Source of the DNA: Candidatus Marsarchaeota archaeon
GTDB lineage: Archaea > Micrarchaeota > Micrarchaeia > Micrarchaeales > Micrarchaeaceae
Assembly (NCBI GenBank): GCA_023485295.1
Contig: JAMCZQ010000007.1
Location: 26,335 to 90,334, forward strand
Length of the DNA: 64,000 nucleotides
Reading direction: 5' to 3'
Shown: piece after piece, positions 1,739 through 19,425 of the stretch
How positions within the stretch are numbered: the stretch's first letter is position 1
Layout: each line of letters starts with the position of its first letter
The notes under the pieces: model-generated
Databases searched by the model: none
Seen by the model: only the letters and a program-made list of their open reading frames with translations
Told to the model about the DNA's origin: nothing
Position numbers and translations under genes: made by a program

Positions 1739-4090
1739 TCATTCGAATGCGTAATCTATGTCATCCACAGACACTAGTTTTATATATCCTGCTGAAATGT
1801 AAAGCTTGAGCTCCTCAGCCGCAGGATCTGATTTTGAATAAAGCAAGTCTTTGAAATCCTGCATCTTATTCTCATCAAGGAAGACCAGATATGTCTTTGA
1901 GTTTGCCGTTATTGTTACGCTCTTGAATTTGCTCGTTGGAGCATAAATGATTATGTTCCGCTTCTCACCGTGCACTAGTATGCTCGTATCAGCGTTTTCA
2001 GCAGAGTCCAAGTCAGTAAATACGTATGCATGCGTAACGCAGTAGAGCCTTAGCTTCTTGAAAATTGCCAGGTACTCTATGTCATGGCCGCTTTGCGCTA
2101 TCCACTCCTTTGGCGCATAGAGGTCTCCTGCAGTCACAAGCAACCCGGCTCCAACCAACTGGTCCAATACAACCTCTATATTTGCCTCTGTAAGGGTTAC
2201 TGGTATGCCATTATACCTTATGTTATTCGCTATCGCTACTTTTATCTCCGCTTTTGAAAGTGGCATGTAGCGCCAGTGGTAGAAGATGTTGAGCTTTGTA
2301 AAGGTGTTTACTACGTCCTGTGCCTTGAGCGATATTGCAGTCTTCTGCTGCTTTGGCAGTCTCGGGACATCAATGTAGAATTCATCCCTGTTGGGCGCCC
2401 TTACCATCGTTACCATCAGCAATACTACTATTATGACCACAATAAGCGAAATGTCCCTAACACCTATGTGTATCACTGGCGCAGGGTTGGAAGTCGAATA
2501 TATGAGATGGGTCGAAAGCATGCTAAAATTATATTTTAGCTTGCCGTACTGTATCCCAACTGTACTTGGCAGTGCATAAAGCAATGTGCCGTTATTTATT
2601 GTTCCGTTGGATCTATAGTTTCCGTTTAACGTCACGTTATAACTTATTCCTGAGAGCGGCACCCCTGCGGCAGTGATGTAAAACCTGTATATGTTGTGCG
2701 TATAGTTCGCTGCAATCTCGCGTATGCTAACATTCGGTATGTCGAATAATGCCGCAGCGTACTGCTGATTAGAAAAGCTGTCCAGGGTTATTATATACCT
2801 GCCGGGCCCTTCAAGCAGCTTCATGTATTTAACGAAAGTAAAATTTCCAGAAGCAGATATGTAAGGCAAAGGTATTGACGAAACTGTGGACATGTTGATA
2901 TTGTATATGGTCAAATGCGGCTGAATGCCTATTGGCGTTGCCGAATGCGTGAACACCTCCATTGTTATGTATTCAGCGACATTCGGAATTATAAGCCCTG
3001 GCATTGATATGCTGCCGTTATAGCCATATGACGGGAACGAACTCAGATAGTAATACGTTTTACCTGGTAAATAACTGGAATTGGTATATAGCACAACGCG
3101 CAAGTTGCCGGAGAGAAGCCCGCGCATGTTCTGCGGAGTATAATTTATCGGCTTCGGCTGATTCATTATTATGCCTTCAGCACCAAAATCATGCTTTGAC
3201 GGGTTTATAGATATGTTGCTGATCCCATAAGAGTAGCGCGGCAGCCAAAAGCCTAGCGATATAGCCTTTGCCATATCATCAGCCGCATCGGAAACGTTGT
3301 TCCATGAATCAAGGTAGTTCGAGAAGGCAACTATGCTGCCGTTTAAAGCATTCACGTATGTGGCGCTGCCGAAATTATTGCCTATTGTAAAGGAGAATGT
3401 TGAGCTATTGAAATAGAAATCCGGTCTATGGGTCACAGAAGAGCCACCAGTGACCATGTAATATGGCACATTGCTATTTGGCACGATTATTCCATCTGGG
3501 AGTATGACCCTGGAAAAGGACTGGCCTATGTATATTATGCTTGTTCCTTTTCCAAGCAGGTAGCCTATTAGGGTGGTGTTGCTGTAGTTTCCTAGCATTA
3601 CGCTAGGCAGCAGGCCAGTAGGTATAATCAATATCGAGTCATTTTCGATGGAGGCTACAGAGGACATGTTTATTATTGTCACATTCGGGTACATGGAGCC
3701 AAGTCCGTATTCCTTTAAAGAGCTGTTCACGTCTCCGTAAAACAGCGAAATGCCTGCGCAGTTCACGCAATCCGAAGTTGCATTAAGGATGTACACTTTG
3801 ACAGGAAACGGGCTTTTGAGCAGCGTTGCGTTGAAGTACACCTTAGATATGTTCGAGGCAGAATATGACACGAGAGAATATGGGAGTATCAGCGTGCTGC
3901 TGTTATAATCAAGCGCGTTCTGATAGCTGACATACGCGCTTAGCGACGTATTGAGGCGCACGTGCGTAACCGTCGTACTCGGGGGCGCTTTTATATGGCT
4001 TAAGACTACAGTAAGGTATAAGCCGCTCCCAAGCATTGCAACTAAAAATATTACGACAATAACTGCTATTATGACTTTCAGCTTTGCCAA
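1739..4090 (-). CDS. Large bitopic surface protein: N-terminal signal anchor, ~520-aa ectodomain with ~26 N-x-S/T sequons, second TM, ~220-aa cytoplasmic domain. Last gene of the T4SS-like block.
   Basis: 783-aa ORF with TTG start. Hydrophobic segments VIIAVIVVIFLVAMLGSGLYLTVVL and ISLIVVIIVVLLMVTMV. Sequons counted by eye. No family recognised. Confidence 0.6.
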   Translation of the reverse strand: MAKLKVIIAVIVVIFLVAMLGSGLYLTVVLSHIKAPPSTTVTHVRLNTSLSAYVSYQNALDYNSSTLILPYSLVSYSASNISKVYFNATLLKSPFPVKVYILNATSDCVNCAGISLFYGDVNSSLKEYGLGSMYPNVTIINMSSVASIENDSILIIPTGLLPSVMLGNYSNTTLIGYLLGKGTSIIYIGQSFSRVILPDGIIVPNSNVPYYMVTGGSSVTHRPDFYFNSSTFSFTIGNNFGSATYVNALNGSIVAFSNYLDSWNNVSDAADDMAKAISLGFWLPRYSYGISNISINPSKHDFGAEGIIMNQPKPINYTPQNMRGLLSGNLRVVLYTNSSYLPGKTYYYLSSFPSYGYNGSISMPGLIIPNVAEYITMEVFTHSATPIGIQPHLTIYNINMSTVSSIPLPYISASGNFTFVKYMKLLEGPGRYIITLDSFSNQQYAAALFDIPNVSIREIAANYTHNIYRFYITAAGVPLSGISYNVTLNGNYRSNGTINNGTLLYALPSTVGIQYGKLKYNFSMLSTHLIYSTSNPAPVIHIGVRDISLIVVIIVVLLMVTMVRAPNRDEFYIDVPRLPKQQKTAISLKAQDVVNTFTKLNIFYHWRYMPLSKAEIKVAIANNIRYNGIPVTLTEANIEVVLDQLVGAGLLVTAGDLYAPKEWIAQSGHDIEYLAIFKKLRLYCVTHAYVFTDLDSAENADTSILVHGEKRNIIIYAPTSKFKSVTITANSKTYLVFLDENKMQDFKDLLYSKSDPAAEELKLYISAGYIKLVSVDDIDYAFE

Positions 4091-4103
4091 TCCCTATACA
4101 CCA

Positions 4104-4238
4104 TTAATACTCCTTCTTTTTTGCAAAGGCCTTTGAAAAAAGTCTTGTAAGCGCATTCTCGTGGCTTCCTACGCGTTTAATGATCCCATAGATCCTTATG
4201 TACTTGATCCTCCTGTTTATCCTGACGTCATATTTCAT
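4104..4238 (-). CDS. Possible 44-aa basic micro-ORF (MKYDVRINRRIKYIRIYGIIKRVGSHENALTRLFSKAFAKKKEY)
   Basis: Not in the ORF track (under 60 aa). The ATG lies 3 nt after the stop of the 4242..4973 gene, and the ORF ends 13 nt before the TTG start of the 783-aa gene. It fills an otherwise unexplained gap inside a tightly packed operon. Confidence 0.3.
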   Translation of the reverse strand: MKYDVRINRRIKYIRIYGIIKRVGSHENALTRLFSKAFAKKKEY

Positions 4239-4241
4239 GCT

Positions 4242-4973
4242 TTAACCCTTGAGCTCTATATAGCCTGTTGAAACCATCTTGTTTAGCATCTGCTCGACGC
4301 GCGGAGGGGATATCTTGTAGGTTTTTGAAAACTCCATAAGGTCTATCGTATTGTTATGCGCATCGATCCAGTCCTCTATCATTACCATGAGCGACTCGTC
4401 CGAAAATGTCTCAAGCGATGACAGCCTGTTTTTCAGATCCCTGTTTTCGGCTGAAAGCTGCGCTGCCTGGACAGTCAGGTTTTTATTCGAAGCGGTAAGC
4501 TCTATGTTGAGCCTCTTCAATTCCCTGTATTCATTGAACAGCGAATCGTAGTTGTTGAAAAGCGCGCTGTAATTTTGCGACAGCGAGTTAAGCATGTCGT
4601 CTATGGCAGAATCCACATACTGGTATGTGCCTGCGGGGTCTGCATAATAGAGGTCAGTTATCAATGACAATATGCCAAGAAGGTTCTTTATAACATACAG
4701 CCTTCGCATCTTTTCGCTTGTGTCCTGCGCTATCGAATATTGCACAGATATCGTGTCAGGCTTCAATGTTATTATGAAGAACAGGAATGGGTTTTTCTGT
4801 ATATCCCTGCTTTCTATGTTCAGCATCACAAGGCTGTTGTCCGGATTTATTTTTATGGAGAACATCTGCAGCGTGGAAAGCCTTTTGGATATGGTCTGGA
4901 AGTCGCCGGTCAGCGTACCCTTAAGCGTGAACTCCGCAATTTTGGGCTCAACAAGCCCCGTTTCATTAGCCAT
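4242..4973 (-). CDS. Hypothetical protein: N-terminal domain, central coiled coil, C-terminal winged-helix-like module
   Basis: 243-aa ORF. Heptad-like stretch ELKRLNIELTASNKNLTVQAAQLSAENRDLKNRLSSLE. C-terminus MEFSKTYKISPPRVEQMLNKMVSTGYIELKG resembles a wHTH. Confidence 0.55.
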   Translation of the reverse strand: MANETGLVEPKIAEFTLKGTLTGDFQTISKRLSTLQMFSIKINPDNSLVMLNIESRDIQKNPFLFFIITLKPDTISVQYSIAQDTSEKMRRLYVIKNLLGILSLITDLYYADPAGTYQYVDSAIDDMLNSLSQNYSALFNNYDSLFNEYRELKRLNIELTASNKNLTVQAAQLSAENRDLKNRLSSLETFSDESLMVMIEDWIDAHNNTIDLMEFSKTYKISPPRVEQMLNKMVSTGYIELKG

Positions 4974-5063
4974 TCAAACAAACCTTAGCCAATTTGTGCA
5001 TTATAATTTTTATATGCACACTTTTATAATGTTTTAGCCGCACTTCTTATATTCAAAAGCGCA

Positions 5064-5447
5064 TCAACTCTTTATACGGGCAGTGCCCTTTTTGGCTTCC
5101 GGCTGCGCCTTCAACCCTGGCGTATAGCTCAGAAGGGACAATGCATACATAAGCGCAATGACAACAATGCCAGCGACAACCGCCCCGATGCTCCTGCCTG
5201 TAGCTATAAGCACAGCGGCAAAAAGCACACCTATCACCAAATAGGATATTGTCTTGGTGTTATACGAATCCCTAGCCTTTTTATATTTTACATAGCAGTC
5301 CTTGCAAACGACAAGCCTGTAGCCCTTTTCGTTCTTAGTCACGTTCTTCTTAAACCAGCGCATCGCGTCTATAATCCTGTCGTTTTTTACTTCAAGGCCG
5401 TCCTTCTCCAAGCCGCATATTATGCAGCGCGATTCCTTCTTCATCAA
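5064..5447 (-). CDS. Zn-ribbon (CxxC...CxxC) protein with C-terminal double TM anchor
   Basis: 127-aa ORF. CIICG ... CKDC, followed by ISYLVIGVLFAAVLIATG and AVVAGIVVIALMYALSLL. Confidence 0.6.
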   Translation of the reverse strand: MMKKESRCIICGLEKDGLEVKNDRIIDAMRWFKKNVTKNEKGYRLVVCKDCYVKYKKARDSYNTKTISYLVIGVLFAAVLIATGRSIGAVVAGIVVIALMYALSLLSYTPGLKAQPEAKKGTARIKS

Positions 5448-5448
5448 A

Positions 5449-5754
5449 TCAACTTAAGCTTATGGTTGCATCGAATATCCTTCCCGATTCAGCAAGCAGT
5501 CTCTGCTCCTCCATGCTGTTTATTGCATCGTTAATGGTTACATCGTCCATGCCAAGCCTTCTAAATATGTTTATTATGGCATCGCGCTTCAGGTTTATCT
5601 TTTCAAGCATTCCGGCAAAGGCTATGGCGTTTACGTGCCTGTGCATCTTCTCCATGTCTGAAAAGAGCTTCTCTATGCTGCTCTCATCTACCTTGTATAT
5701 GGTGAGCACCCTTCTCAGCTCCTGCCTGCTTATCACAAACGTATCCTTAGGCAT
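5449..5754 (-). CDS. Small helical protein, stand-alone paralog of the C-terminal ~62 aa of the adjacent ATPase
   Basis: 101-aa ORF whose start overlaps the ATPase stop by 8 nt. An ungapped alignment of YKVDESSIEKLFS...FRRLGMDDVTINDAINS to the ATPase tail YNVNVDSINKIFS...LKSLSIDDMLITRIISS gives about 16/62 identities. Confidence 0.6.
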   Translation of the reverse strand: MPKDTFVISRQELRRVLTIYKVDESSIEKLFSDMEKMHRHVNAIAFAGMLEKINLKRDAIINIFRRLGMDDVTINDAINSMEEQRLLAESGRIFDATISLS

Positions 5755-7273
5755 TCATAACACCTGTCGATGAAATAATCCTAGTTATAAGCATATCATC
5801 TATGCTGAGGCTCTTCAGGAACGACACTATGTCTGCATTCGTGACCCCGTTCGTTGCCATGAGCCTTACAAAGTCAAGTATCTTCAATGACCTGCCTTCG
5901 GTGTCAATGGTGCTGAATATCTTGTTTATAGAATCAACGTTCACATTATACTCTATGAACTTGTTCTTAAGCTCCTCTTCCTCAAACTGGTAATCGCGCT
6001 GTATAATGCCTGCACTGAGCTCGCTTTGCGTCAGCACATCTGACAGGTCTATTGTGTACACGTACAGCGGCTCCTCGCCCTTGACCCTGTCCAATACGAA
6101 TATTTCTGGGAACTGCAGCGATGTCTGGAAAGCCATGTTAACCGCGGCCTGCCCAACTCCAAATTTGCTTATCTCAGACCTTATGAAGTCTGAAAAATTA
6201 AGGGATCCCTGCACGTAGTCAAGGAACTTTTCGAACTTTATCCTTAGTATGAAGGATGTTCCCACGTTTGAGAATATTGCTTCGTTTATGTCTGTTGGGT
6301 TTTGTGACGCCACTATAAGGCCGAACTGGTACTTCCTGCCCTCCCTTACGATCATAACGGCATCGCTTTTTTCATCGCCTGCAATTTTCCACGCTTCATC
6401 AAGCACCACCAATGTGCGTATGCCCTTATTTTCGCTCCAGCCCTCGAATCGCATGCGCTCCTTTAACGTCTGCAGTATGAACAAGGCAGCAAGGGCCCTG
6501 AATCGTTCATCAGGCAGGCCGGACAGGTCTATATCAACCAGCCCTGAGCTTGCGAGCTTCTGCAGGTTTATTGTGCTTTTCCTTGAAAAATAATCCTCGC
6601 CCTCCCTTGCAAATTGCCTTAGCCTGTATATTGCATTTTCAAGCTCTGCAGGATATTCATAGGTGCCTTCCTGCAGCTGCTCCTCGAGTATCGATATCGC
6701 ATCCTTCAGGGTAGGCGCGTCTTTTCCTTCCGGCGCAGGCTCTGCTATGTTGAACCCTGCGTTGACATACGCCTGCTCTATAGCTTCTTCTGTGAGCCGC
6801 CTCTGCTCCGGATATGCTGCTATATCCGTCAGTATCTCAAAAGATGTCAGTATCTGCTTTGTCCTGTCCAGGGGTTTCATTCCTGAGAGGTCCATGATGT
6901 TTATATAGTCTCCTTTGCCTAGCGATACTATTACGCCGCCGCTCTGTTTTACCCATGCTTTGTACTCGGCAGCCCAGTCTATTATCACTGCATTTGTATC
7001 CCATATATAGCTGGCCCTTATTAGGAAAGTTTTCACGAAATAGCTTTTTCCCGCGCCTGTTATTCCTACAACTGCTATATGCGGGTTCGTGAGGTTCGTG
7101 AAAGACCAGCTGAACGGGACCTTGAACAGCTTCGTGCTTCCTATGTATATTGCCTTGAATGGGTCGTTTATCAATACGTTTGCAGGCGGCTCAGGGGGCC
7201 TTGACATGAAAGCCCTCTTCCCTATTTCATTGCTCATTATATGCTGCAATTTTAATATGGACATTATAATCAA
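5747..7273 (-). CDS. VirB4/TraC/TrbE-type (AAA_10/DUF87-like) secretion ATPase; a CedB-like candidate
   Basis: 508-aa ORF. Walker A GITGAGKS, IIDWAAEY, APTLKDAISILEE, Walker B VVLDEAWKI, REGRKYQFGLIVASQNPTDI. The DEAW plus RKY..Q..D pattern is VirB4-like rather than HerA-like. Confidence 0.75.
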   Translation of the reverse strand: MIIMSILKLQHIMSNEIGKRAFMSRPPEPPANVLINDPFKAIYIGSTKLFKVPFSWSFTNLTNPHIAVVGITGAGKSYFVKTFLIRASYIWDTNAVIIDWAAEYKAWVKQSGGVIVSLGKGDYINIMDLSGMKPLDRTKQILTSFEILTDIAAYPEQRRLTEEAIEQAYVNAGFNIAEPAPEGKDAPTLKDAISILEEQLQEGTYEYPAELENAIYRLRQFAREGEDYFSRKSTINLQKLASSGLVDIDLSGLPDERFRALAALFILQTLKERMRFEGWSENKGIRTLVVLDEAWKIAGDEKSDAVMIVREGRKYQFGLIVASQNPTDINEAIFSNVGTSFILRIKFEKFLDYVQGSLNFSDFIRSEISKFGVGQAAVNMAFQTSLQFPEIFVLDRVKGEEPLYVYTIDLSDVLTQSELSAGIIQRDYQFEEEELKNKFIEYNVNVDSINKIFSTIDTEGRSLKILDFVRLMATNGVTNADIVSFLKSLSIDDMLITRIISSTGVMNA

Positions 7274-8933: not shown

Positions 8934-8951
8934 TATATCATTCTTAGTTTG

Positions 8952-8968
8952 TTTTAAAGTTTAATAAA
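8952..8968 (-). promoter_or_regulatory. AT-rich TATA-like elements (minus strand TTTATTAA / CTTTAAAA) 19-35 nt upstream of the ATG at 8933; possible internal, near-leaderless promoter
   Basis: This is the only AT-rich 50-bp gap inside the block. The spacing fits an archaeal TATA box about 25-30 nt upstream of the transcription start site. Confidence 0.3.
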
Positions 8969-8983
8969 TTTATCTAAACGGGA

Positions 8984-10636
8984 TCATATGAATCCGGCGC
9001 GAAGCCTTCCGCTCATCCTTGCAGTGCCTCCTATAAAGTTGGCGAGCTGCACTATGAATGCATATGTCACTGCGCTTATCAGGGCAGGGTAGAAGAGTAT
9101 CAAAAGCCAGAACGAATTTATCGTAGACTCTATGCTGCTTAGGTTTGTGACCAATGGGCTTGTGGATGTGAGGGCATTAAGCTCAGCTCCTCGTCCAGCG
9201 CCATACCTTGCAAGCAATGCCGATTCGGCATTGAGCTGCGTAATCAGGTGCGGTGCCGTAAAGTAGAAAGCGACTGCAAACAACAGCGGCATTACAAAGT
9301 AAAAGCCTGCCGCAGTCGCTATGAGTATGCCACCAAGCGATCTGGTTGGAAGTATTGCCCTCAATATCACGCCAGGCACCAGGAATACAGGTATTGCGGC
9401 CACGGCAAAGAATACTATAAGGTAATATTCCGCGTACAACGCAAGTATGCCGTCTGCTATGAACGAAGTTATGACTGCCGTCGGCTCTATGTAGAATATA
9501 TCCAATCCCAAGAACGCAAGCGGCACTATCTCGTTGGTTATGTTGGCTGCAGGATACGCTGGCGTCGATATTGTCGCCTTGATTGACGATAAATACATAT
9601 CATAGAAATATGTGCGGAACAATTCGTTATAAACGTTTTCTGCTGAGTTTATTGTCGTGGTTATAAGGTGCAAAGCAGTTGCGTAGGGGTTTATCGCCCC
9701 AACGAAAACGCCAGGCACCAGGCCGAATACAACTGCGCTTATGTAAAGGAATAGCACCACAATAATGGCGCTCGCAATCGCCTCATAAAGCTCCCCTACT
9801 CCGAAATTCCTTATCCTGCTGTTTTTGGTAGCTGCCCCAACCATAAATATGCCTCCTGCAATGAGGAAAGCTATAAGCACCACTATTATGGCTATTGGTA
9901 TGTAGCCCTGCCACGAGAAGTATATAGATTCGTTTATCGGGCAGTACCATGGCTCAGTGCTCTGAATTGTCTGTTCCAAGCTTGGAGGGAGCAGCCCGCA
10001 CCTGAGCGGCGGCGGCGTAGGCGTCGGGGTGCACGCAATCATATTGCTCGGGCAGCCGTTCGACGGGCCTGTAGTCTGATAGCTGCAGTCGGTAGGGCAG
10101 CTAAACCCTGTTGTTGGATTTACGCAGGTGTCGCAGCTGTAATATGCGGTGGATGTGCTTGTGGTGGAAGTGGTCGTGCTGCTTGTCGTAGACGTAGTTG
10201 AAGTGCTGGTTGTAGAAGTAGTAGAACTGGATGTTGAAGTAGTAGAGGTTGTTGTAAATATTGTGGATGTAGTGGTCCTGATTGTAGAAGTGGTCGTGGT
10301 ATGGAAAGCAATGCACTCTTCTTCAACACCGCCATGCGGGCACCTATTCGGAAGCACTTTGCAGTACCCATTGCATGGATAAAGTTCGCCGCAAAAGTCG
10401 CAATATGTCGTCATTATTGGATCGGAAAGCAGCTTTTCCGTAGACATTGTAAAAATTGCATAGGCCGGCTCGCCCTGGGTCTGTGACGACTGCGCGAAAG
10501 ATAAGCCGCCAGATATTTTCTGGATTCCAGAGCCTTGGCTCAATCCAACATTAGCATAGCCCAGCGCATAACCAATGATTACCGCTAGAATTGCAATGTA
10601 TACTGCATAGCTTACCAATCTCTTGTCGTAGTTCAA
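8984..10636 (-). CDS. Polytopic membrane protein, paralog family member (candidate VirB6/CedA-like) with an N-terminal Cys-rich plus Thr/Ser-rich ectodomain
   Basis: 550-aa ORF. Family motifs NFGVGELYEAIASAIIVVLF and ILPTRSLGGILIATAAGFYFVMPLLF. Many TM segments. Confidence 0.65.
   Translation of the reverse strand: MNYDKRLVSYAVYIAILAVIIGYALGYANVGLSQGSGIQKISGGLSFAQSSQTQGEPAYAIFTMSTEKLLSDPIMTTYCDFCGELYPCNGYCKVLPNRCPHGGVEEECIAFHTTTTSTIRTTTSTIFTTTSTTSTSSSTTSTTSTSTTSTTSSTTTSTTSTSTAYYSCDTCVNPTTGFSCPTDCSYQTTGPSNGCPSNMIACTPTPTPPPLRCGLLPPSLEQTIQSTEPWYCPINESIYFSWQGYIPIAIIVVLIAFLIAGGIFMVGAATKNSRIRNFGVGELYEAIASAIIVVLFLYISAVVFGLVPGVFVGAINPYATALHLITTTINSAENVYNELFRTYFYDMYLSSIKATISTPAYPAANITNEIVPLAFLGLDIFYIEPTAVITSFIADGILALYAEYYLIVFFAVAAIPVFLVPGVILRAILPTRSLGGILIATAAGFYFVMPLLFAVAFYFTAPHLITQLNAESALLARYGAGRGAELNALTSTSPLVTNLSSIESTINSFWLLILFYPALISAVTYAFIVQLANFIGGTARMSGRLRAGFI
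10148..10300 (-). repeat. Low-complexity Thr/Ser-coding tract (51 codons, TTTTSTIRTTTSTIFTTTSTTSTSSSTTSTTSTSTTSTTSSTTTSTTSTST)
   Basis: Read directly from the translation. At DNA level it is an imperfect gtng/gtag-type reiteration on the plus strand. Confidence 0.9.
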
Positions 10637-10646
10637 TCCATTACAC

Positions 10647-11693
10647 CTATATGAAGTTTGACAGCAGCTCCATGAAGCTCACCCTTTCTCCAACAGCTTT
10701 TGAAAAGTCAATTATAAATGCATCAAGTATGACAAAGTTTATGAAAGGAATAAAGGTAAGGCCGACTATCGCATATCCGAAGCCGCTTATTATGCTCGTA
10801 GGTATAAGCGATACCGTGCCTGTAGCCACGAATTCTAAGAAATCAGCTATTCCAGCAGGTAGTATTGATATCAGACCGGCTCCTGAAAGCATGTTCACGT
10901 TTATGAAGCCGTATGTGATGCTTATGAGCAGCGGGTATACAATCCCAAGGCCCAGGCCAAACGCAATCATGGCTCCGCCAAACGTCCTGGTAAAGCCGAA
11001 TACCCTGGCGATTAGCCCTATTGTAAGGAAGAACGTAAGGAACAGTATCGAGCCGGATATTAGCAGCAGCTGCAGGTTATTCAGCACAAGCATGAAGACG
11101 AGCCCGGAAAGGGCAAGGCCGATATAGCCCTCCAGGCCTGCAGGATAAACGCTGTTTAGGGTGGTGCTTATCTTAAGGCCCAAAATGGGCTGCAGCCCAA
11201 GGGAAAAGCCCGGCGATTGCCCTGCAACAAGCGCCAAGACGTCAACGAATTCGAAATACGAGAACGCGTTGTTGGTAAAAGTGCCTATATCACATGCTGA
11301 AAGCGAGAAAAGCGTGTTTATGCTTGCAGTATTGCATTCTTTAGGGAGCAGCCCTACGCTGTTGTACGCATTCACTGGATTAATCAGGAAAACGTAGAAC
11401 AGCCCAAGGAATATTGCAAGCAGCATAAGCGATATTAATGCCTCGTATATCTGCACCTTTGCCCAGTTCTTCGCATTCTGGCTGTATATCGTGCTGCCGA
11501 GCATGTATACAAATGCGGCAACGAATATGACTATGAGCACCGCGATTATTGCGATTGACATTCCGCCTGCAGGCGGGAACACCCCGTAGTATATCGAAGT
11601 GGTGGTAGTGCTTGCGCCAGCTATATTCGGAATAAGCGCGAGTGCTACTGCTAAAAGCACCGCAACTGCTGTTACATCTCTGATCTTGCTCAT
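10647..11693 (-). CDS. Polytopic membrane protein, paralog family member (candidate VirB6/CedA-like)
   Basis: 348-aa ORF with a signal-peptide-like N-terminus. Motifs NWAKVQIYEALISLMLLAIF and VFGFTRTFGGAMIAFGLGLGIVYPLL. Confidence 0.65.
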   Translation of the reverse strand: MSKIRDVTAVAVLLAVALALIPNIAGASTTTTSIYYGVFPPAGGMSIAIIAVLIVIFVAAFVYMLGSTIYSQNAKNWAKVQIYEALISLMLLAIFLGLFYVFLINPVNAYNSVGLLPKECNTASINTLFSLSACDIGTFTNNAFSYFEFVDVLALVAGQSPGFSLGLQPILGLKISTTLNSVYPAGLEGYIGLALSGLVFMLVLNNLQLLLISGSILFLTFFLTIGLIARVFGFTRTFGGAMIAFGLGLGIVYPLLISITYGFINVNMLSGAGLISILPAGIADFLEFVATGTVSLIPTSIISGFGYAIVGLTFIPFINFVILDAFIIDFSKAVGERVSFMELLSNFI

Positions 11694-12778
11694 ATGACTC
11701 CTCTCAATGCCTTCGACGTGCTCAGGCTCGGCGCGCCTAGGAAATCACCTACAGTTTCAGCGAAATCAAGCGAAAACATTATTGCTAAGATCGTGCCGAG
11801 CAGCAGGTACATTACAGGCGTGACAACAGATTCTATGAATTCTGTCACAACATTCCCGTGTATGAAGGATATAAGTGCGCTCAAGTCGCTAACAGGGTTG
11901 AAAATCGTTGTTATGGTGAACGGATCAGAAGTCAAAGCCGTTACTGTAACGGCAGTTATGGGCGGCATCGTTGCTACAAACGCTATGATCAGCGGAAGGA
12001 AAATGTAGAATCCTATAAATAACCCAAGGAAAGCCCCGCCAGCCGCGCGAGTCCATGGTATGGTGCGCAGAACTATCCCGACATAGAGGAATATCGGGAA
12101 AAGGCTGTATATCAGCGACAAAAGCACGGCCACTCCGAAAAGCAAGGCTATTATAACTCCTGTAAAGCTTATCAGCAGCTTCAATATCTGCGTAATGAAA
12201 TAAGCGCCGTAATACGGCGAGAAGCCAATTCCCCAATAATTGGGGTGCAGGCCTATGGACGTAGATGCCAGAAGCGAATAGAAATCGGATTCTACTGCCA
12301 AAGCCCTGAAAGCACCGAGCGTATTGAATGCAGTGCTAGCCACACTGACACAGTCGTTTGTAAAGATGCCTGTCCAGTCATATTTGGCCAGCACCCCGCT
12401 TTTGCCTATCGTGCTTCCTGTTGCGGAAAGCACGCCAAGAAATATCAGGATTATGAGTACGGTTATTACTGCCTCGCCTATCTCGGATTTTGCAAAGCTT
12501 GTAAGTTTATCTATGTTAAATGCATACCCTATTGCAAATGCCATGCCAGCTATCGTGAGCATTATCATAATGATCAATCCAGACAGCACGATTACGCCGC
12601 CTGCAATGGAAGTGTTCCCTATTACGCTATTGCTCGAAGCAGTAGTAGGAATAAGGCTGCTGCAAAGGTTTGTCGCGGACGAGCCGAAGCTGAAATTGGC
12701 AAGCATAAGCAAGGCCATTAGCGCTAGGGCTGCAATCCCTGCGTGCTTCCTTAATGACATGCTGCCGTACATCTGCAT
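11690..12778 (-). CDS. Polytopic membrane protein, paralog family member (candidate VirB6/CedA-like)
   Basis: 362-aa ORF with a 4-nt overlap with the downstream gene. Motifs SFAKSEIGEAVITVLIILIF and TIPWTRAAGGAFLGLFIGFYIFLPLI. Confidence 0.65.
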   Translation of the reverse strand: MQMYGSMSLRKHAGIAALALMALLMLANFSFGSSATNLCSSLIPTTASSNSVIGNTSIAGGVIVLSGLIIMIMLTIAGMAFAIGYAFNIDKLTSFAKSEIGEAVITVLIILIFLGVLSATGSTIGKSGVLAKYDWTGIFTNDCVSVASTAFNTLGAFRALAVESDFYSLLASTSIGLHPNYWGIGFSPYYGAYFITQILKLLISFTGVIIALLFGVAVLLSLIYSLFPIFLYVGIVLRTIPWTRAAGGAFLGLFIGFYIFLPLIIAFVATMPPITAVTVTALTSDPFTITTIFNPVSDLSALISFIHGNVVTEFIESVVTPVMYLLLGTILAIMFSLDFAETVGDFLGAPSLSTSKALRGVI

Positions 12779-14259
12779 CAGACCAATTTTGACAGGCCTG
12801 CAAGGGCCGTATCGCCTCCCATGAGGCCGGATATGCCTATTATCCCGCTCAGCACTATTATGAGATTTATTATAGGTATGAAATATGCCGATATTCCAAG
12901 CACTCCATAAGTCCTCACCAGCATGTAATATCCGTTCAGTGCCTGCGTTTCAGTGCACCCCTGCGGCAGCCCGGAAATGTCAGGCGCAACAGGCACAGAA
13001 TGATTTATAAGGGCAAGCAGCTGCGTTGCAAGCCCGGTAAAAGGTATCAGCAAATAGCTCGTGTCTTCAACCTCCGCATTAAGCAGGTTTCCGTCTGCCG
13101 GCCAGCATCCAGTGCTTTTCGTAGCGTTCGCTACGCTCGGCATGACGTAGAAGTTTGTCACATAAGGCCTGCCTGTGCTATTTGGTATGTAATAAGTCGA
13201 ATTCGTGAAAAGGTTGCCGAACCCGTAATAAGCGCCAAGGTCATTCGAATTGTATGTGAATGGGGTTGTGCTGGTTGGCGGCGTATAGCCCATGAGTGCA
13301 CCAAGGCCATGGCCTAGGTACAGGTATTCTATGGAGAATACCAGCGGGAAGAACAATATTGCGCCTATGCCTATGGCTATCAGCAGCCCGCCTATCTTTC
13401 TTGTAAAGGGCAGTACCCTGAGTATGACGCCGCCAAATATAAGGTACGGCCATATATATAGGAAGATAGAAGTTAAGGTGAGCTGCGCTATAAAGCTCTC
13501 AAGCGCAAGCGTCATCAGCACGCCTATGCTGTCGAGGGATTTGTACACCAGCCTAAGCCCAGCATATGGGGAATTTTGATAGTGTATGAACAGGTCAGCC
13601 TCTGTAGGCGCTGGAAGCATGCACTGCACAGATATTGGAGAAGGTGGCTCAGGCGATATGCATATGTTTATCTGCGGGCTCAGGTGCTCCAGGTAACCAA
13701 TGAAAGCGTCGAATATAAAATACGAGTTTAGGTTGAGCGCAGTCTGGTTCGTAAGGTTTGCTATCACTACTCCTGATGCAGCAAGCGGGTAGTCCGCCTT
13801 CTCAGTAAATGTATTCTGCTTTGCCACTATGTTGCAAAGCCCAGGAAAGCCAGTTGGATTCTTGGAGAACAGCAGCGAGCTTCCTGTAAGCGACTTTGAG
13901 GCATTCAGCACCGAAAGCTGCGAACTTTCGTTTATGCCATTGCACAAGCTTAGGACATTCGCCGGGTTCATGAGCGCCGTTGAGGAAGTTACGGAATAGA
14001 ACGCATCCCCGAATATCACCAGCACGCTTACCAGCAGCACTACAAGCACCGCAGTGCCTATGAGCTGGTAAAATTCTGTCATGGCCGACGACTTCACCCT
14101 GGCGTTGCCAAGTATTGCGCCTGCCATATACCATGCTCCAACTATGGCTCCATCAAGCACTATGGCTATTGCTATGAGCGGGAACAGAGATGAGTATACC
14201 CCGTGGAATGCAGAAATCTGCAGCAATATCGGTATAAGCAACATCATAAGCTCGCCCAA
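12778..14259 (-). CDS. Polytopic membrane protein, paralog family member (candidate VirB6/CedA-like)
   Basis: 493-aa ORF. Motifs AMTEFYQLIGTAVLVVLLV and VLPFTRKIGGLLIAIGIGAILFFPLVF. 1-nt overlap at 12778. The start may instead be the Met at 14244, giving a 1-nt overlap with the upstream stop. Confidence 0.65.
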   Translation of the reverse strand: MGELMMLLIPILLQISAFHGVYSSLFPLIAIAIVLDGAIVGAWYMAGAILGNARVKSSAMTEFYQLIGTAVLVVLLVSVLVIFGDAFYSVTSSTALMNPANVLSLCNGINESSQLSVLNASKSLTGSSLLFSKNPTGFPGLCNIVAKQNTFTEKADYPLAASGVVIANLTNQTALNLNSYFIFDAFIGYLEHLSPQINICISPEPPSPISVQCMLPAPTEADLFIHYQNSPYAGLRLVYKSLDSIGVLMTLALESFIAQLTLTSIFLYIWPYLIFGGVILRVLPFTRKIGGLLIAIGIGAILFFPLVFSIEYLYLGHGLGALMGYTPPTSTTPFTYNSNDLGAYYGFGNLFTNSTYYIPNSTGRPYVTNFYVMPSVANATKSTGCWPADGNLLNAEVEDTSYLLIPFTGLATQLLALINHSVPVAPDISGLPQGCTETQALNGYYMLVRTYGVLGISAYFIPIINLIIVLSGIIGISGLMGGDTALAGLSKLV

Positions 14260-16004
14260 AATGACGCAACACCCTCTATGCCGGCATCAAGAGACCGCGC
14301 AAGGCCCATGGCAAATCCTATTGCAACTGCAAGGTTTAAGCCAAATAGGAATACAGCAAGAAATATAAATTCAGACATGTTCTGGATTATGTACGAAGCT
14401 ACAGACACTATAGGAACCCTCAGCGTAGCATACAGCGACGAGCTAAGAAGGTTGTTCGTGACCGGAGTGGATACGCCCAGGCCAGAGCCGAAAATGGAGA
14501 ATAGGCTGTTTTTGCTTGAGGTGATAAGCGTATTGCTTTCCAAGAAAGAAGAGCTCGGAAGAGCTGGAAGCACGTATGCAGTGCTCAGGCAGTTGGTGCA
14601 GCCGTACAGCGGATTCAGCGATGGCGTGTATATCCAATAAATTATGTAGCTGTCGAAAGCTATCATCAGCGGGTAAATTATGTATATCGCTATCGCTATT
14701 GCCAGCACCGCGTTAGAAATCGTTCGAAGGCCTGTGCCGCCGTATGGTATAAACCTTAGTACTAGCGCAACAGGCAGCAGCACTGTAAAAGCAGTATACT
14801 CAAATATGGGCAGCGCCAGGTACTGAAGGAACAGCATGCCTATAGTTATTATCAGTATTGGAGAGAGCGCGTCGAAATACACATCAGAAAGAGAGCCGTA
14901 TAATGTTCCAAAGTCATGCGCATACGATATGGTTACGCTGAATACCCCTCCAATGGTCGGAGATATGCTAAGGTCTTGAGAAAGCACTGTAAATATCCTG
15001 CCGACTATCGCATACCTTATAGAGGTCTGGTAAACGTAGCCTATCAGGTTTATGCCTCGATTCAATGCCAGTGTGCCTATGTAATAATCCGCATATTCGA
15101 ATGGCGTAAGCCCTGTAACTCCAGTGACTCCTGCTGCGGAAAGCACCTTCGAGCCGAGAGAAGCGGAAAGATTGCATGCTGATGTAGTAAGCGAAAGCAG
15201 CACGAGCAGTATTACTATGCTTATAACAAGCTGCGTTATCTCAACCCTTGTTATCTGTGTAAGCCTTACGCGCAAGGATGTTGGCATGAACCTGCTTATC
15301 ATGAAAATAAATGCCACTACAAGGAAACCAAAAAGGATAATTATGTAATTTATCGGAAGCCACCCTGCTATGTAAGGAGAGCCAGGCCCGCCGTAAATGC
15401 TGCAGTAGTTTACTGCAGGCACTACTGTTGTGAAAGTTGTGCTTGTCGTGGAGCTTGTCGATGTTGTCGTAGTAGAGCTAGTAGTGGACGATGTTGTCGA
15501 TGTTGTTGTAGACGTCGTAGAAGTCGTAGAAGTCGTAGATGTTGTCGATATTATTGTAGAGGAAGTTGTTTTTACCGTGCTGGTGGTGGAGCTTGTGGTG
15601 GTTTTGCTCGATTCGCAGGTGCCAAGCCTATATCCACTGTTGGAGAGGACGCATTCTCCACTGCTTGTTTTTGTAATATATTGCGCCTTGGAGTTTGCCA
15701 CGCAGCTGTAGCCTGTATCGCATGAAGAATAGCCGCAATATCCATTAGGCGCATTTATTAGGCAGCTGCTTCCTGCACCGCCAAACACTGGCTGGCTTAT
15801 CAAAGTGCTGTTTTGAACATCTGCAGTTTTGGAATATGCAGTATTAGGCACAATGCTATCTTGGTGGGCCGGCACCATTACAGGCGAGCTTTTTGCCGTT
15901 AAGCTGCTTGCAATATGGCTTCCGGCATATAAGAACGAAGCTACTGCTACAGCTATTATAATCATGTAAATAACTGCAGTCAATGCTTTATTATGCAAAC
16001 TCAC
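14244..16004 (-). CDS. Polytopic membrane protein, divergent paralog family member with an N-terminal Cys-rich plus Thr/Ser-rich ectodomain
   Basis: 586-aa ORF. Divergent core motif FIPYGGTGLRTISNAVLAIAIAIYIIYPLMIAF. N-terminal TM, six Cys within about 50 aa, then a 62-aa T/S tract. Confidence 0.65.
   Translation of the reverse strand: MSLHNKALTAVIYMIIIAVAVASFLYAGSHIASSLTAKSSPVMVPAHQDSIVPNTAYSKTADVQNSTLISQPVFGGAGSSCLINAPNGYCGYSSCDTGYSCVANSKAQYITKTSSGECVLSNSGYRLGTCESSKTTTSSTTSTVKTTSSTIISTTSTTSTTSTTSTTTSTTSSTTSSTTTTSTSSTTSTTFTTVVPAVNYCSIYGGPGSPYIAGWLPINYIIILFGFLVVAFIFMISRFMPTSLRVRLTQITRVEITQLVISIVILLVLLSLTTSACNLSASLGSKVLSAAGVTGVTGLTPFEYADYYIGTLALNRGINLIGYVYQTSIRYAIVGRIFTVLSQDLSISPTIGGVFSVTISYAHDFGTLYGSLSDVYFDALSPILIITIGMLFLQYLALPIFEYTAFTVLLPVALVLRFIPYGGTGLRTISNAVLAIAIAIYIIYPLMIAFDSYIIYWIYTPSLNPLYGCTNCLSTAYVLPALPSSSFLESNTLITSSKNSLFSIFGSGLGVSTPVTNNLLSSSLYATLRVPIVSVASYIIQNMSEFIFLAVFLFGLNLAVAIGFAMGLARSLDAGIEGVASFWASL
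15426..15611 (-). repeat. Low-complexity Thr/Ser-coding tract (62 codons, SSKTTTSSTTSTVKTTSSTIISTTSTTSTTSTTSTTTSTTSSTTSSTTTTSTSSTTSTTFTT)
   Basis: Read directly from the translation. Confidence 0.9.
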
Positions 16005-16006
16005 AC

Positions 16007-17308
16007 CTATGCAATCTTGAATTTACCGACGCCCAAGCTCAGCTTTCCGCCAAGCATGCTTGCTATCGCGCCTGCAATCACCAGCGTTATCACAAGATCC
16101 AATATTATCAATATGAATTGAAAGAGCACAGGCGTTCCATAAAACCCTATGATATTGAATGCCGGATATATTGCGCCATGCCCTGAGAGCATAATGGCCA
16201 TGCCCCCACCCCAGCCGTTTTCAAAGGAATTTGCATACAAGTTCGCGTTTGGGTCACCGGCAGTTTGTGCATCTACAAGTATATCTGAGGCAGTGCCGTA
16301 AGTCGGATATGCTATAACGCAAAGCGCATCTGTGAATAACGATTCCGCAGAAATACCGCTTCCAAAACAGGTTACTGTCGGTGCAGTGTTCTGCTGATAC
16401 AGTATTGGCTGTATGTAATTTGTCATAGGTACATTGAATACAACCAGCATTGCTGGAAAGATGAGCCCTATTGCCATGCCGATTGCTATGAAGCTGCCTC
16501 CGAGCCCACGAAGGAACGGTATGGCGCGGAACACTATGCCTATTGGCAGGAATAGCGCCAGGCCTATGAGCACTATGTAATAAAGGAGGCTGCTGAGGGT
16601 TTCAAGCACAAAGTAAACAGGTATAAACACTACTTCTATGAAGTCCTTTATAAAAGAGTAGTTCGGCAGCTCTAAATTTGACTCTATTACAGAGCTGCTC
16701 AGAAATCCAGAAGACGACCCGAACTGCAGTGCCCCAACGAAAGGTATCGGTATGGGTATCCATGTCAATACTGCAGTGCTCTTAAGCTCTCCTACAGAGG
16801 AAGAAAGGCCTTCGAACGCGTAGAAGCTCTCATTGAGCATCAGCATTGTCGGATCAATGTATGCGCTGTAATCAACCGCATAAAGCTGGTTCAAATTATC
16901 GGAAACGCTGCTGTAAGCACTACTATTCAGCGGCAACGAGACGACAGGCACACTGCTACCAGCAAGAGCAAGCGCTATTGCGCCAACGATAATAAGTATT
17001 GCAAAGATCAAAACAATCAGAAGAGCGCTTTTCGCCGCTTCATAAAGCTCTCCTTGGTACCAGTTCCTCAGCGACCCTATCTGCAGGACGTTTCCCACCA
17101 TGAAGGCTATGCCTATCAGCAGGAAAGAAAGAAGAAGGCCTATAAGCGCAAGCGGTATTGCCCCGGCAATGCAAAGTCCTACGTTAGACGAAGTAGTCGA
17201 AATGCCTGTAAACGGGCATGTCACCGATGTTGTGCTCTGTGCACTGCTAATCGATGCCAATAATACAAAGGCCATGAACGCCGCGATATACGCAGGTTTT
17301 AGTCGCAT
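16007..17308 (-). CDS. Polytopic membrane protein, paralog family member (candidate VirB6/CedA-like)
   Basis: 433-aa ORF with signal peptide MRLKPAYIAAFMAFVLLASISSAQS. Motifs NWYQGELYEAAKSALLIVLIF and AIPFLRGLGGSFIAIGMAIGLIFPAML. Confidence 0.65.
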   Translation of the reverse strand: MRLKPAYIAAFMAFVLLASISSAQSTTSVTCPFTGISTTSSNVGLCIAGAIPLALIGLLLSFLLIGIAFMVGNVLQIGSLRNWYQGELYEAAKSALLIVLIFAILIIVGAIALALAGSSVPVVSLPLNSSAYSSVSDNLNQLYAVDYSAYIDPTMLMLNESFYAFEGLSSSVGELKSTAVLTWIPIPIPFVGALQFGSSSGFLSSSVIESNLELPNYSFIKDFIEVVFIPVYFVLETLSSLLYYIVLIGLALFLPIGIVFRAIPFLRGLGGSFIAIGMAIGLIFPAMLVVFNVPMTNYIQPILYQQNTAPTVTCFGSGISAESLFTDALCVIAYPTYGTASDILVDAQTAGDPNANLYANSFENGWGGGMAIMLSGHGAIYPAFNIIGFYGTPVLFQFILIILDLVITLVIAGAIASMLGGKLSLGVGKFKIA

Positions 17309-18180: not shown

Positions 18181-18213
18181 AAGAAAAAATGCAGCCTGCA
18201 TTTTCATGCAGGC
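18181..18213 (-). terminator. Hairpin plus T-run just 3' of pilin-like copy A
   Basis: Perfect 8-bp stem gcctgcat (18194..18201) / atgcaggc (18206..18213) with a 4-nt loop. On the minus strand it is followed by TTTTTTCTT. Confidence 0.5.
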
Positions 18214-18619
18214 GCTTCAACCTCGCGAATCAGCAATATGACTTTATTGCGGACTCTGAGTTTCCTGTCAGGATTGCCAGTATGAACGGCGCGAGTTCTG
18301 CTATTATTACTCCTATTACGCCTCCTACTACCATTCCCATACCATATCCTTGTATGGAACCCTTGCTTTGTCCTGGCATTATGTGTGCAGCTGCATATAG
18401 CGCTCCTCCAAGCACTATCAGTGCCAGTCCCAATATGAATATACCGATGCTTATAGCACTGTATATTGGGCATATAACGCTGGTTATCGTTGCAAATGCG
18501 TTAGGCGCTGCGTATGATACGGTCGATGCGAATGCAAGCATTGGCAGTACCATCAGTACTATTCGGAAGACTTTCGAGTGCAATAGGTTCACTATTGACA
18601 GTAGTTTGGTCTCTAACAT
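18185..18619. repeat. Tandem direct repeat, unit A (period 577 bp), covering the pilin-like CDS plus its 3' hairpin
   Basis: I aligned it by eye to 18762..19196. It is identical except at 18488, 18562, 18608, 18611 and 18614. Confidence 0.9.
18230..18619 (-). CDS. VirB2/TrbC-like pilin candidate, copy A (signal peptide plus helix-loop-helix hydrophobic hairpin)
   Basis: The track ORF 18230..18628 starts at a GTG; the likely start is the ATG at 18619 (MLETKLL), preceded by AAGGTG. Leader ...MLAFASTVSYA/AP. Mature part: SVICPIY..ISIGIFILGLALIVLGGALYAAA - HIMPGQSKGSIQGYG - MGMVVGGVIGVIIAELAPFILAILTGNS. Confidence 0.65.
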   Translation of the reverse strand: MLETKLLSIVNLLHSKVFRIVLMVLPMLAFASTVSYAAPNAFATITSVICPIYSAISIGIFILGLALIVLGGALYAAAHIMPGQSKGSIQGYGMGMVVGGVIGVIIAELAPFILAILTGNSESAIKSYC

Positions 18620-18665
18620 TTCGTACACCTTTATACATCTTTAATTTAATTTCTTAAATAGCACA

Positions 18666-18675
18666 ATTTAAATAA
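18666..18675 (-). promoter_or_regulatory. TATA-like box (minus strand TTATTTAAAT) about 47-56 nt upstream of the copy A ATG
   Basis: Sits in the context GCGAAACTTATTTAAATT, matched by ACGAAAGGTATTTAATTT at the same spacing upstream of copy B. Confidence 0.35.
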
Positions 18676-18754
18676 GTTTCGCAATAAGTCTTGCAATACT
18701 GCGCACGTGCAGCAAACCTGCTTTGTATAGCTGTGGAACATAAAAAAATAGGAA

Positions 18755-18790
18755 CAAAAATAAAAATGCAGCCTGCATTTTCATGCAGGC
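18755..18790 (-). terminator. Hairpin plus T-runs just 3' of pilin-like copy B
   Basis: Same 8-bp stem (18771..18778 / 18783..18790). On the minus strand it is followed by TTTTTATTTTTGTT. Confidence 0.5.
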
Positions 18791-19196
18791 GCTTCAACCT
18801 CGCGAATCAGCAATATGACTTTATTGCGGACTCTGAGTTTCCTGTCAGGATTGCCAGTATGAACGGCGCGAGTTCTGCTATTATTACTCCTATTACGCCT
18901 CCTACTACCATTCCCATACCATATCCTTGTATGGAACCCTTGCTTTGTCCTGGCATTATGTGTGCAGCTGCATATAGCGCTCCTCCAAGCACTATCAGTG
19001 CCAGTCCCAATATGAATATACCGATGCTTATAGCACTGTATATTGGGCATATAACGCTGGTTATTGTTGCAAATGCGTTAGGCGCTGCGTATGATACGGT
19101 CGATGCGAATGCAAGCATTGGCAGTACCATCAGTACTACTCGGAAGACTTTCGAGTGCAATAGGTTCACTATTGACAGTAGTTTTGTTTCCAACAT
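18762..19196. repeat. Tandem direct repeat, unit B
   Basis: See unit A. Confidence 0.9.
18807..19196 (-). CDS. VirB2/TrbC-like pilin candidate, copy B
   Basis: The track ORF 18807..19238 extends further upstream, but the homologous ATG (MLETKLL) is at 19196 and is preceded by AAGGTG. The protein differs from copy A by one Ile/Val in the leader. Confidence 0.65.
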   Translation of the reverse strand: MLETKLLSIVNLLHSKVFRVVLMVLPMLAFASTVSYAAPNAFATITSVICPIYSAISIGIFILGLALIVLGGALYAAAHIMPGQSKGSIQGYGMGMVVGGVIGVIIAELAPFILAILTGNSESAIKSYC

Positions 19197-19244
19197 TTTT
19201 GTACACCTTGACATTTCTTGAATTGAATCATTCAGCAATCATAA

Positions 19245-19252
19245 ATTAAATA
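19245..19252 (-). promoter_or_regulatory. TATA-like box (minus strand TATTTAAT) about 49 nt upstream of the copy B ATG
   Basis: Same spacing and flanking CGAAA motif as copy A. Confidence 0.35.
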
Positions 19253-19425
19253 CCTTTCGTACAGCCACAAATTATGGAATATTTCAATAAAATGGAACGA
19301 ATGTTTAGTGCATTGCGTGAAGCTATAAAAGAATTTGCATAAAAGTATTAAGTATGGGCAGGCATTAACTTCTTTAAGATAAAATCTGCTTTACTATAAG
19401 ACTAGAAACTGCTGATTGTGATTTT

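Follow-up and report, generated by a model that had tools for sequence, protein, structure and literature searches.

Tandem genes for a probable VirB2/TrbC-like pilin at the head of a Ced/Ted-like gene cluster in a Micrarchaeota archaeon

Ced and Ted are archaeal systems derived from type IV secretion systems (T4SS), the former belonging to the Sulfolobales (CedA, CedA1, CedA2 and CedB) and the latter to the Thermoproteales (TedC, TedA and TedB; Beltran et al. 2023, PMC9905601), and they share no recognisable sequence similarity with each other (PMC9905601). Here we describe a locus to which these two systems are the closest in kind. It lies in a stretch of 64,000 nucleotides, hereafter the window, from a Candidatus Marsarchaeota archaeon (assembly GCA_023485295.1, contig JAMCZQ010000007.1, positions 26,335 to 90,334 of the forward strand), in which two nearly identical genes in tandem head a 17-kb minus-strand array of genes that resembles a secretion machine. 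Judging from sequence comparisons, the twin genes probably encode the major subunit of a conjugative-type pilus of the VirB2/TrbC fold in this Micrarchaeota (DPANN) archaeon. An earlier note, made from the letters of the window without database searches, had read them as VirB2/TrbC-like pilin genes present in two doses.

The locus resembles Ted in being chromosomal and archaeal and in combining a T4SS-derived VirB2-like pilin with VirB6-like membrane proteins and a VirB4-like ATPase; no relaxase or coupling protein was found in the 16 open reading frames (ORFs) of the cluster, which is the composition of Ced- and Ted-type systems. The signal sequence of TedC is apparently cut by signal peptidase I (PMC9905601), as is predicted at VSYA/AP in the window pilin. 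Unlike Ted, the Micrarchaeota cluster has six VirB6-like paralogs instead of one, a pair of proteins of 277 and 276 amino acids (aa) and an orphan partner of 243 aa; the pilin family has no sequence match to TedC, the window pilin carries a conserved cysteine pair, the host is a DPANN symbiont, and a role in DNA import can be proposed here by analogy only. With Ced the locus has in common a VirB2-fold pilin, a channel and an ATPase. The Micrarchaeota paralogs match the CedA model (best E 2.6e-7, in the family of the 362-aa paralog), and the ATPase matches the CedB and CedD models, but all of these scores lie far below the equivalog cut-offs and no sequence match to CedA1 was found. Moreover, CedA1 is apparently secreted unprocessed (PMC9905601), whereas the window pilin has a long leader that looks cleavable.

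The bacterial TrbC/VirB2 pilins (Agrobacterium VirB2, RP4 TrbC, R388 TrwL) offer a further comparison. In them too a long leader precedes two hydrophobic helices with a short basic loop between, and the gene is linked to those of VirB4 and VirB6; their profile, PF04956, is matched over its full length by relatives of the window pilin. In contrast, the window protein itself scores below the cut-off and does not match TrwL, and the Micrarchaeota cluster contains no outer-membrane core genes. The ends of the mature protein also differ: the bacterial T-pilin, TrbC and TrhA are cyclised head-to-tail (PMC12037004, PMC13434634), whereas in the window pilin Cys50 and Cys129 may tie the ends together.

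Membership of the VirB2/TrbC superfamily is supported at the level of the family, through the relatives of the window protein. A search of 5.8 billion proteins recovered 97 relatives; most are nameless, a few carry precomputed PF04956 matches, and the named sources are Micrarchaeota, Micrarchaeia or 'Marsarchaeota' metagenome-assembled genomes with the same gene order. The window protein aligns with positions 12-96 of the 98 in PF04956 (TrbC/VirB2) at 16.0 bits (E=0.014). When 43 aligned family members were scanned singly, 16 matched PF04956 at E<=0.01 and no other Pfam family recurred. Two of these, P0032 (35.4 bits, positions 4-98 of 98) and P0057 (29.8 bits, positions 7-96 of 98), exceed the curated gathering cut-off of 27.9 bits; both are 54-55% identical to the window protein and related to it at E<=1e-23. 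Together with the VirB4- and CedA-like genes downstream, these matches uphold the pilin assignment of the earlier note.

The family alignment displays a leader of 37-38 residues, with a basic n-region and a hydrophobic core, and small residues before the predicted cut (VSYA/AP in the window protein, ASA/Q or ALA/Q in other members); the leader of the window protein probably ends at VSYA/AP, a site of the signal peptidase I type. The mature part, of about 92 aa, is a hairpin of two hydrophobic helices, between which the loop H-x-x-P-(x)3-K-G-x-x-Q-G-Y-G is invariant. The cysteine pair is nearly invariant, Cys50 lying close to where helix 1 begins and Cys129 at the C-terminal end, and by analogy with the bacterial pilins a disulfide between them may take the place of cyclisation. 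AlphaFold models the precursor as a helical hairpin (predicted local distance difference test, pLDDT, 78) and the mature part (pLDDT 84) with helices at 4-43, 48-81 and 85-91, the first two joined by the loop PGQSKG. The layout read earlier from the sequence, namely a basic and hydrophobic leader ending at VSYA/AP followed by two helices and a basic loop, is seen in the alignment for the leader and in alignment and model for the helices and loop.

Several results weigh against this assignment. The window protein itself stays below the Pfam cut-off (16.0 versus 27.9 bits). Searches of the PDB returned no pilin, whether the query was the protein alone, the profile of the whole family or that of its mature part, and profile searches of PDB chains gave no VirB2, TraA, CedA1 or TedC chain at E<=10, the solved CedA1 and TedC being assumed to be present in the PDB copy. 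Foldseek comparison of the precursor and mature models with the PDB placed no pilin in the top 50 and gave generic helical hairpins only (best E 0.4-0.6), among them DgkA, AhlB/SmhB and designed bundles. The method has too little to work with in a hairpin of two helices, and we count this outcome as uninformative and not as evidence against the assignment. The alignment by hhalign of the pilin family with R388 TrwL, taken as a single sequence, was not significant (probability 1%). Furthermore, tblastn of P0032, the best Pfam-scoring member, found no match in 72,556 plasmids. A direct link to a bacterial pilin at the BLAST level is therefore lacking. Of the families that the earlier note had named for comparison, PF04956 is matched above the cut-off by two relatives and below it by the window protein, and no match to CedA1 or TedC was obtained.

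The twin genes belong to two units 577 bp apart. Base-by-base comparison at this offset gave 432 matches out of 437 between the two blocks listed in Table 1, with mismatches only at 18488, 18562, 18608, 18611 and 18614; beyond the blocks the units are essentially unalignable at the same offset, and a repeat search recovered the same pair at the same spacing. The earlier note had found these units and placed their starts correctly, its length of 435 bp being 2 bp short. Its five differences were also recovered at the same sites: on the minus strand, four are synonymous, in the third positions of codons 2, 3, 4 and 44, and the fifth (18562), in the first position of codon 20, makes the only protein difference, I20V in the leader (Ile in copy 1, which lies downstream, and Val in copy 2). 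The divergence over coding sequence (CDS) and terminator is 1.1%. The mature proteins are identical, and the two copies are two doses of one mature pilin, as had been claimed.

One argument of the earlier note did not hold. It had taken all the substitutions to be non-synonymous in the plus-strand ORFs, which is true for only two of the five (18562, I/T; 18608, L/F). Third positions coincide in that frame pair, and the remaining three differences are synonymous in the antisense reading as well. Because three of the five differences are synonymous on both strands, the substitution pattern is a weak guide to the coding strand, and it is homology and operon context that settle the minus strand as coding. 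The plus-strand ORFs at 18189-18644 (151 aa) and 18691-19221 (176 aa) shadow the pilin genes in antisense and are probably not genes themselves.

Each copy looks like its own transcription unit, with a predicted promoter, a GGTG ribosome-binding site and a hairpin plus oligo-T terminator. Identity between the copies extends 45 nt beyond the stop codon, across the hairpin GCCTGCAT-GAAA-ATGCAGGC and the first T-run, as described in the earlier note; the hairpin folds at -17 to -18 kcal/mol, and a hairpin and/or an oligo-T tract also closes many orthologs. On the other side, the last 59 nt upstream of the ATG align without gaps, with 39 of 59 positions matching (66%, about 34% diverged). Both copies have, in ungapped register, AAGGTGTAC 3-4 nt ahead of the ATG and CGAAA-N2-TATTTAA about 50-55 nt ahead of it; the genome being archaeal, we read the latter as a transcription factor B recognition element (BRE) plus TATA box. 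The earlier note had both motifs kept at the same spacing, which is right for the motifs and their register, the distance from ribosome-binding site to ATG differing by 1 nt. The box (C)GAAA(A/C/G)nTATTTAAAT and the GGTG motif recur with unchanged distances in orthologous loci that have one copy (L001, L003, L004 and L006), and both copies therefore keep the ancestral promoter. A sigma-70 promoter scan gave no excess of sites over shuffled sequence, which is what an archaeal genome should show. An additional A/T-rich TATA-like stretch precedes the next gene downstream of the pilin copies.

In the mechanism that we propose, the 129-aa precursor would enter the membrane and lose its leader by cleavage after Ala37. 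The hairpin would then be extracted and polymerised into a hollow filament by an ATPase/channel complex, presumably made of the six CedA/VirB6-like channel paralogs and the VirB4-like ATPase that are encoded directly downstream. The second copy would double the supply of subunits with an identical mature product, and the terminators after each copy would leave pilin in large excess over the machinery, with the operon fed by read-through or by a separate promoter. The apparatus would probably serve uptake or cell-cell contact and not plasmid export, because of the analogy with Ced and Ted (PMC9905601) and the lack of a relaxase.

How the two copies came to be so alike has been weighed against relatives and other assemblies. 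The earlier note had left gene conversion and very recent duplication side by side; of these, conversion is favoured and a fresh duplication disfavoured. The coding region and terminator would have been kept alike by repeated conversion, because the promoters are about 34% diverged against 1.1% for CDS and terminator, and because alleles are mosaic in other assemblies. A very recent tandem duplication, with too little time for divergence and without gene conversion, would agree with the small number of differences and with the closest relatives (60-73% protein identity; L001-L006, L009 and L013), which have one pilin gene. We find it distinctly improbable: the 59 nt upstream are homologous in register yet 34% diverged, while the synonymous divergence of the CDS is only about 4% (4 differences, for an estimated ~95 synonymous sites). 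Moreover, the 3' 303 bp of the block are 100% identical and four of the five differences are concentrated at the 5' edge, a pattern like that where a conversion tract ends. Alleles have also been exchanged between copy contexts. In other assemblies of closely related strains, genes flanked by the promoter and the downstream sequence of copy 1 have copy-1 alleles in codons 2-4, together with the copy-2 allele at CDS position 58 (L062 and L064) and at position 132 (L062). Comparison of copy number, as the earlier note had suggested, gives one gene in the closest relatives and 2-3 tandem genes in several lineages. L057 (9032-10402) has three with mosaic tracts of 100% identity, the 3' half being shared by copies 1 and 2 and the 5' half by copies 2 and 3; the three copies of L041 are 82-90% identical. 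Homogenisation of duplicated pilin genes by conversion is ordinary pilin biology. That the duplication arose in assembly, for example by the stitching together of two strain variants of one gene, is hardly credible. What speaks for it, and against the twin-gene reading, is that in two contigs of near-identical strains, L061 (GCA_023378845.1, JAMCSV010000013.1, 2969-3441) and L063, a single CDS stands between the promoter of copy 2 and the downstream sequence of copy 1, at 98-99.9% identity. Either the repeat has collapsed in these contigs or the copy number truly varies; collapse of a 437-bp repeat is common in short-read assembly and would account for both. On the opposite side, the unique 140-nt spacer is joined to copy 1 in independent assemblies from other samples (L060, L062 and L064), and there it is also joined to the 3' end or terminator of copy 2, L062 holding the last 37 nt of that copy. 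The tandem junction is thus present in independent assemblies, which speaks against the artefact that the earlier note had named as a possible refutation.

The product itself could be a VirB2-like homolog that acts as a membrane-embedded channel part or a short stub, with no extended pilus and with the two copies serving the stoichiometry of the complex. The extreme hydrophobicity of the protein would suit such a role, as would the lack of anything filament-specific in the Foldseek results for the precursor and mature models and of a recognised VirB5-like pilus-tip gene in the cluster. We nevertheless hold this role to be rather unlikely, since abundant structural subunits typically have separate strong promoter/terminator units and an expanded copy number, as in the several lineages with 2-3 tandem genes, since the pilin module occurs in other Micrarchaeota fused to large secreted domains and in poly-pilins, suggesting display on a polymer, and since the homologous CedA1 and TedC form pili (PMC9905601).

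The fused and repeated modules were encountered in other Micrarchaeota. A VirB2-like module is attached, usually at the C-terminus, to proteins of about 500-1750 aa (L038, L035, L033, P0199, P0217 and P0226). The ORFs in question include those of L038 (match 8779-9036, 687 aa), L035 (match 10001-10255, 557 aa) and L033 (minus-strand match 2665-2895, 677 aa), whose products are rich in Cys, Pro, Gly and Ser and have an N-terminal hydrophobic signal-like start. The fusion proteins are encoded upstream of the major pilin gene and may be minor pilins or tip adhesins; to our knowledge, no such arrangement has been described for VirB2-type pilins. Poly-pilins with 4-7 tandem VirB2-like modules each are encoded by an L033 minus-strand ORF (~7630-8745, 632 aa), in which the Cys...Cys pair is kept in each module, and are also seen in P0098 (1071 aa) and P0100 (342 aa). 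In L057, the third pilin copy carries a Gly- and Cys-rich C-terminal extension. Fusion of pilin modules to large Cys/Pro/Gly-rich secreted domains would fit a surface-exposed filament.

Returning to the pilus reading, the genes downstream of the pilin copies are those expected to encode its assembly machinery (Table 1). The polytopic 243-aa protein directly after copy 1 has no Pfam or NCBIfam match and forms an orphan family, the few named homologs being all hypothetical proteins of Micrarchaeota ('Marsarchaeota'); it is a candidate pilin-specific accessory factor. The six polytopic paralogs that follow, of 433, 586, 493, 362, 348 and 550 aa, represent families that are mutually homologous (hhalign probability 92-99%) and have in common the motif R-x-(I/L)-P-x-x-R-x-x-G-G. 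The NCBIfam CedA model NF041796 is matched by the 362-aa protein of the window at E=1e-4 and by 7 of the 26 members of its family. The CedA score is 22 bits against a cut-off of 330, and the CedB score of the ATPase is 62 bits against 700; the similarity is therefore at superfamily level only, that of distant relatives and not of orthologs. A profile search of the PDB with the 362-aa family gave no VirB6 or TrwI match. A pilin-like module at the start of the six paralogs, as reported for CedA/CedA1, is not supported, the hhalign comparison of the pilin family with each paralog family not being significant (best probability 39% over 31 columns). The 586- and 550-aa paralogs carry Cys-rich and Ser/Thr-rich segments at the N-terminus.

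The 277- and 276-aa proteins are related to each other (hhalign probability 93%) and matched no family in the Pfam and NCBIfam scans; they might stand in for VirB3 and the N-terminal domain of VirB4. The VirB4-like ATPase, encoded directly after them, is unusually short (about 500 aa). It matches Pfam DUF87/HerA, AAA_10 and the TraG P-loop, PDB HerA proteins and the VirB4 C-terminal domain (4ag5), and the NCBIfam models of CedD, the VirB4-like CD1110 family, CedB, HerA, TraC and VirB4/CagE. The E values of these NCBIfam matches range from 5e-19 to 1.5e-10, and none of the scores comes near its equivalog cut-off; the ATPase's identity across Micrarchaeota is 71-86%. Among the distal proteins, that of 127 aa has a zinc-ribbon-like and a membrane segment, that of 243 aa a coiled coil and a C-terminal helix-turn-helix-like domain, and that of 783 aa a large N-terminal region with many N-x-S/T sequons followed by a hydrophobic segment. 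Pfam and NCBIfam scans recognised no relaxase or VirD4-type family in any of the 16 cluster ORFs, and no VirB5-like pilus-tip gene in the cluster. Public annotations of the cluster proteins read 'hypothetical protein' or 'ATP-binding protein'.

Table 1. Positions in the window of the pilin gene copies, their signals and the genes downstream
Feature	Position	Strand	Description	Basis
Predicted pilin gene, copy 1	18230..18619	minus	129 aa, Ile20; stop 18230-18232; adjoins downstream operon	ORF list, translation, family and Pfam results
Predicted pilin gene, copy 2	18807..19196	minus	129 aa, Val20; mature protein identical to copy 1	ORF list, translation
Putatively homogenised block, copy 1	18185..18621	minus	CDS, 45-nt 3' tail and 2 nt of 5' untranslated region	base-by-base comparison at offset 577, repeat search
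Putatively homogenised block, copy 2	18762..19198	minus		base-by-base comparison at offset 577, repeat search
Predicted terminator, copy 1	18184..18213	minus	8-bp G+C-rich hairpin 18194-18213, then TGCATTTTTT	sequence, RNA fold
Predicted terminator, copy 2	18735..18790	minus	same hairpin at 18771-18790, then three T5-T7 runs	sequence, RNA fold
BRE/TATA-like box, copy 1	18667..18681	minus	CGAAACTTATTTAAA, ~50 nt upstream of ATG	sequence, alignment, same box in orthologous loci
BRE/TATA-like box, copy 2	19246..19259	minus	CGAAAGGTATTTAA	sequence, alignment
Predicted ribosome-binding motif AAGGTG, copy 1	18626..18631	minus	6 nt before ATG	sequence, alignment
Predicted ribosome-binding motif AAGGTG, copy 2	19204..19209	minus	7 nt before ATG	sequence, alignment
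Polytopic membrane protein, 243 aa	17368..18099	minus	follows pilin gene(s) at most Micrarchaeota loci	
Six arrayed CedA/VirB6-like paralogs	8984..17308	minus	16007-17308, 14244-16004, 12778-14259, 11690-12778, 10647-11693, 8984-10636; same order in every long locus	hhalign, CedA model NF041796, synteny
Two paralogous proteins, 277 and 276 aa	7270..8933	minus	N-terminal hydrophobic segment, probably membrane-spanning, and soluble remainder	
VirB4/CedB/HerA-clade P-loop ATPase	5747..7273	minus	~496-508 aa	Pfam, PDB and NCBIfam matches
Four distal genes	1739..5754	minus	101, 127, 243 and 783 aa; same order in L037	

A scan of the genome collection found 59 loci, including that in the complete genome of strain A_DKE; their titles name Micrarchaeota or 'Marsarchaeota' in every case but one, a contig binned as Methanothrix. 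Practically all the Micrarchaeota genomes sampled, those of tiny symbionts, have the cluster. The pilin gene is followed by the 243-aa gene in about 50 of the 59. Where contigs are long enough the same order is kept: carbamoyltransferase and PMT genes (divergent), pilin, 243-aa protein, six paralogs, 277, 276 and ATPase. One locus that reaches further, L037, continues in this order to topoisomerase VI B. The flanking genes are housekeeping ones (carbamoyltransferase, topoisomerase VI B, MCM, FtsZ and MetRS), and the rest of the window also encodes GDH, IDH, an XPD-like helicase and an SMC-like protein; the 64 kb yielded no tRNA gene. The conserved order, the housekeeping flanks and the absence of tRNA genes therefore point to a core apparatus that is inherited vertically, as opposed to a mobile element. 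An integrated conjugative element was considered and rejected on the same housekeeping setting, with no tRNA gene and nothing else mobile-element-like in the window. Short contigs with the Micrarchaeota cluster are binned elsewhere in two cases, L002 (JAVYSI010000063.1, Methanothrix sp.) and P0257 (Candidatus Baltobacteraceae bacterium), probably by mis-binning.

Two bacterial systems of host-associated cells invite comparison. The rvh T4SS of Rickettsiales has five divergent VirB6 paralogs arrayed next to VirB4 (PMC2653234); like the Micrarchaeota system with its six paralogs, it belongs to a host-dependent organism with a reduced genome. Unlike it, the rvh system is bacterial and diderm and includes VirB7-11 and VirD4, and the likeness is probably architectural and convergent. 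In Patescibacteria (candidate phyla radiation, CPR), VirB4 is widespread across classes, with VirB2-like pilins nearby and most clusters lacking a relaxase, and the T4SS is reported to be essential for epibiotic growth in Saccharimonadia (PMC12102498). The resemblance lies in ultra-small epibionts that possess a widespread system with VirB2-like pilins and, in most clusters, no relaxase; the Patescibacteria system differs in being bacterial and MPF-FATA-derived, and its homology to the Micrarchaeota cluster is shown for shared superfamilies alone.

Cryo-tomography of ARMAN and ARM-1 cells has revealed 'filamentous connections' or thin filaments (PMC11329633), and nanotubes, intercellular tubes and thin filaments have been described in work on cultured Micrarchaeota with no genes named (PMC11329633, PMC8784108). 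Among open-access papers, none was found that links Micrarchaeota or DPANN with VirB2, VirB4, CedA or T4SS. It is tempting to go further, to a reading that we regard as rather unlikely: the VirB2-type pilus with its six VirB6-like channels might be the phylum-wide link of Micrarchaeota to their hosts (Thermoplasmatales or Sulfolobales), through which DNA, lipids or metabolites would be taken up, an archaeal counterpart of the T4SS of Patescibacteria epibiosis. The pilus might then correspond to the ARMAN/ARM-1 filaments (PMC11329633), the Cys50-Cys129 disulfide would substitute for cyclisation, and the fusions and poly-pilins would act as host-specificity tips.

The twin genes offer a small, clean case of a structural gene that appears to evolve in concert within a reduced genome. 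The locus also warns that short-read assemblies may collapse tandem pilin genes. The duplication matters less, though, than the Ced/Ted-like apparatus found across a DPANN phylum, in which the main interest lies. For the question of how DPANN archaea attach to their hosts and take up material, the locus provides a concrete candidate pilin and assembly machine. If the pilus reading is true, the T4SS-derived Ced/Ted class would extend from Thermoproteota to DPANN, in parallel with the dependence of bacterial ultra-small epibionts on T4SS.

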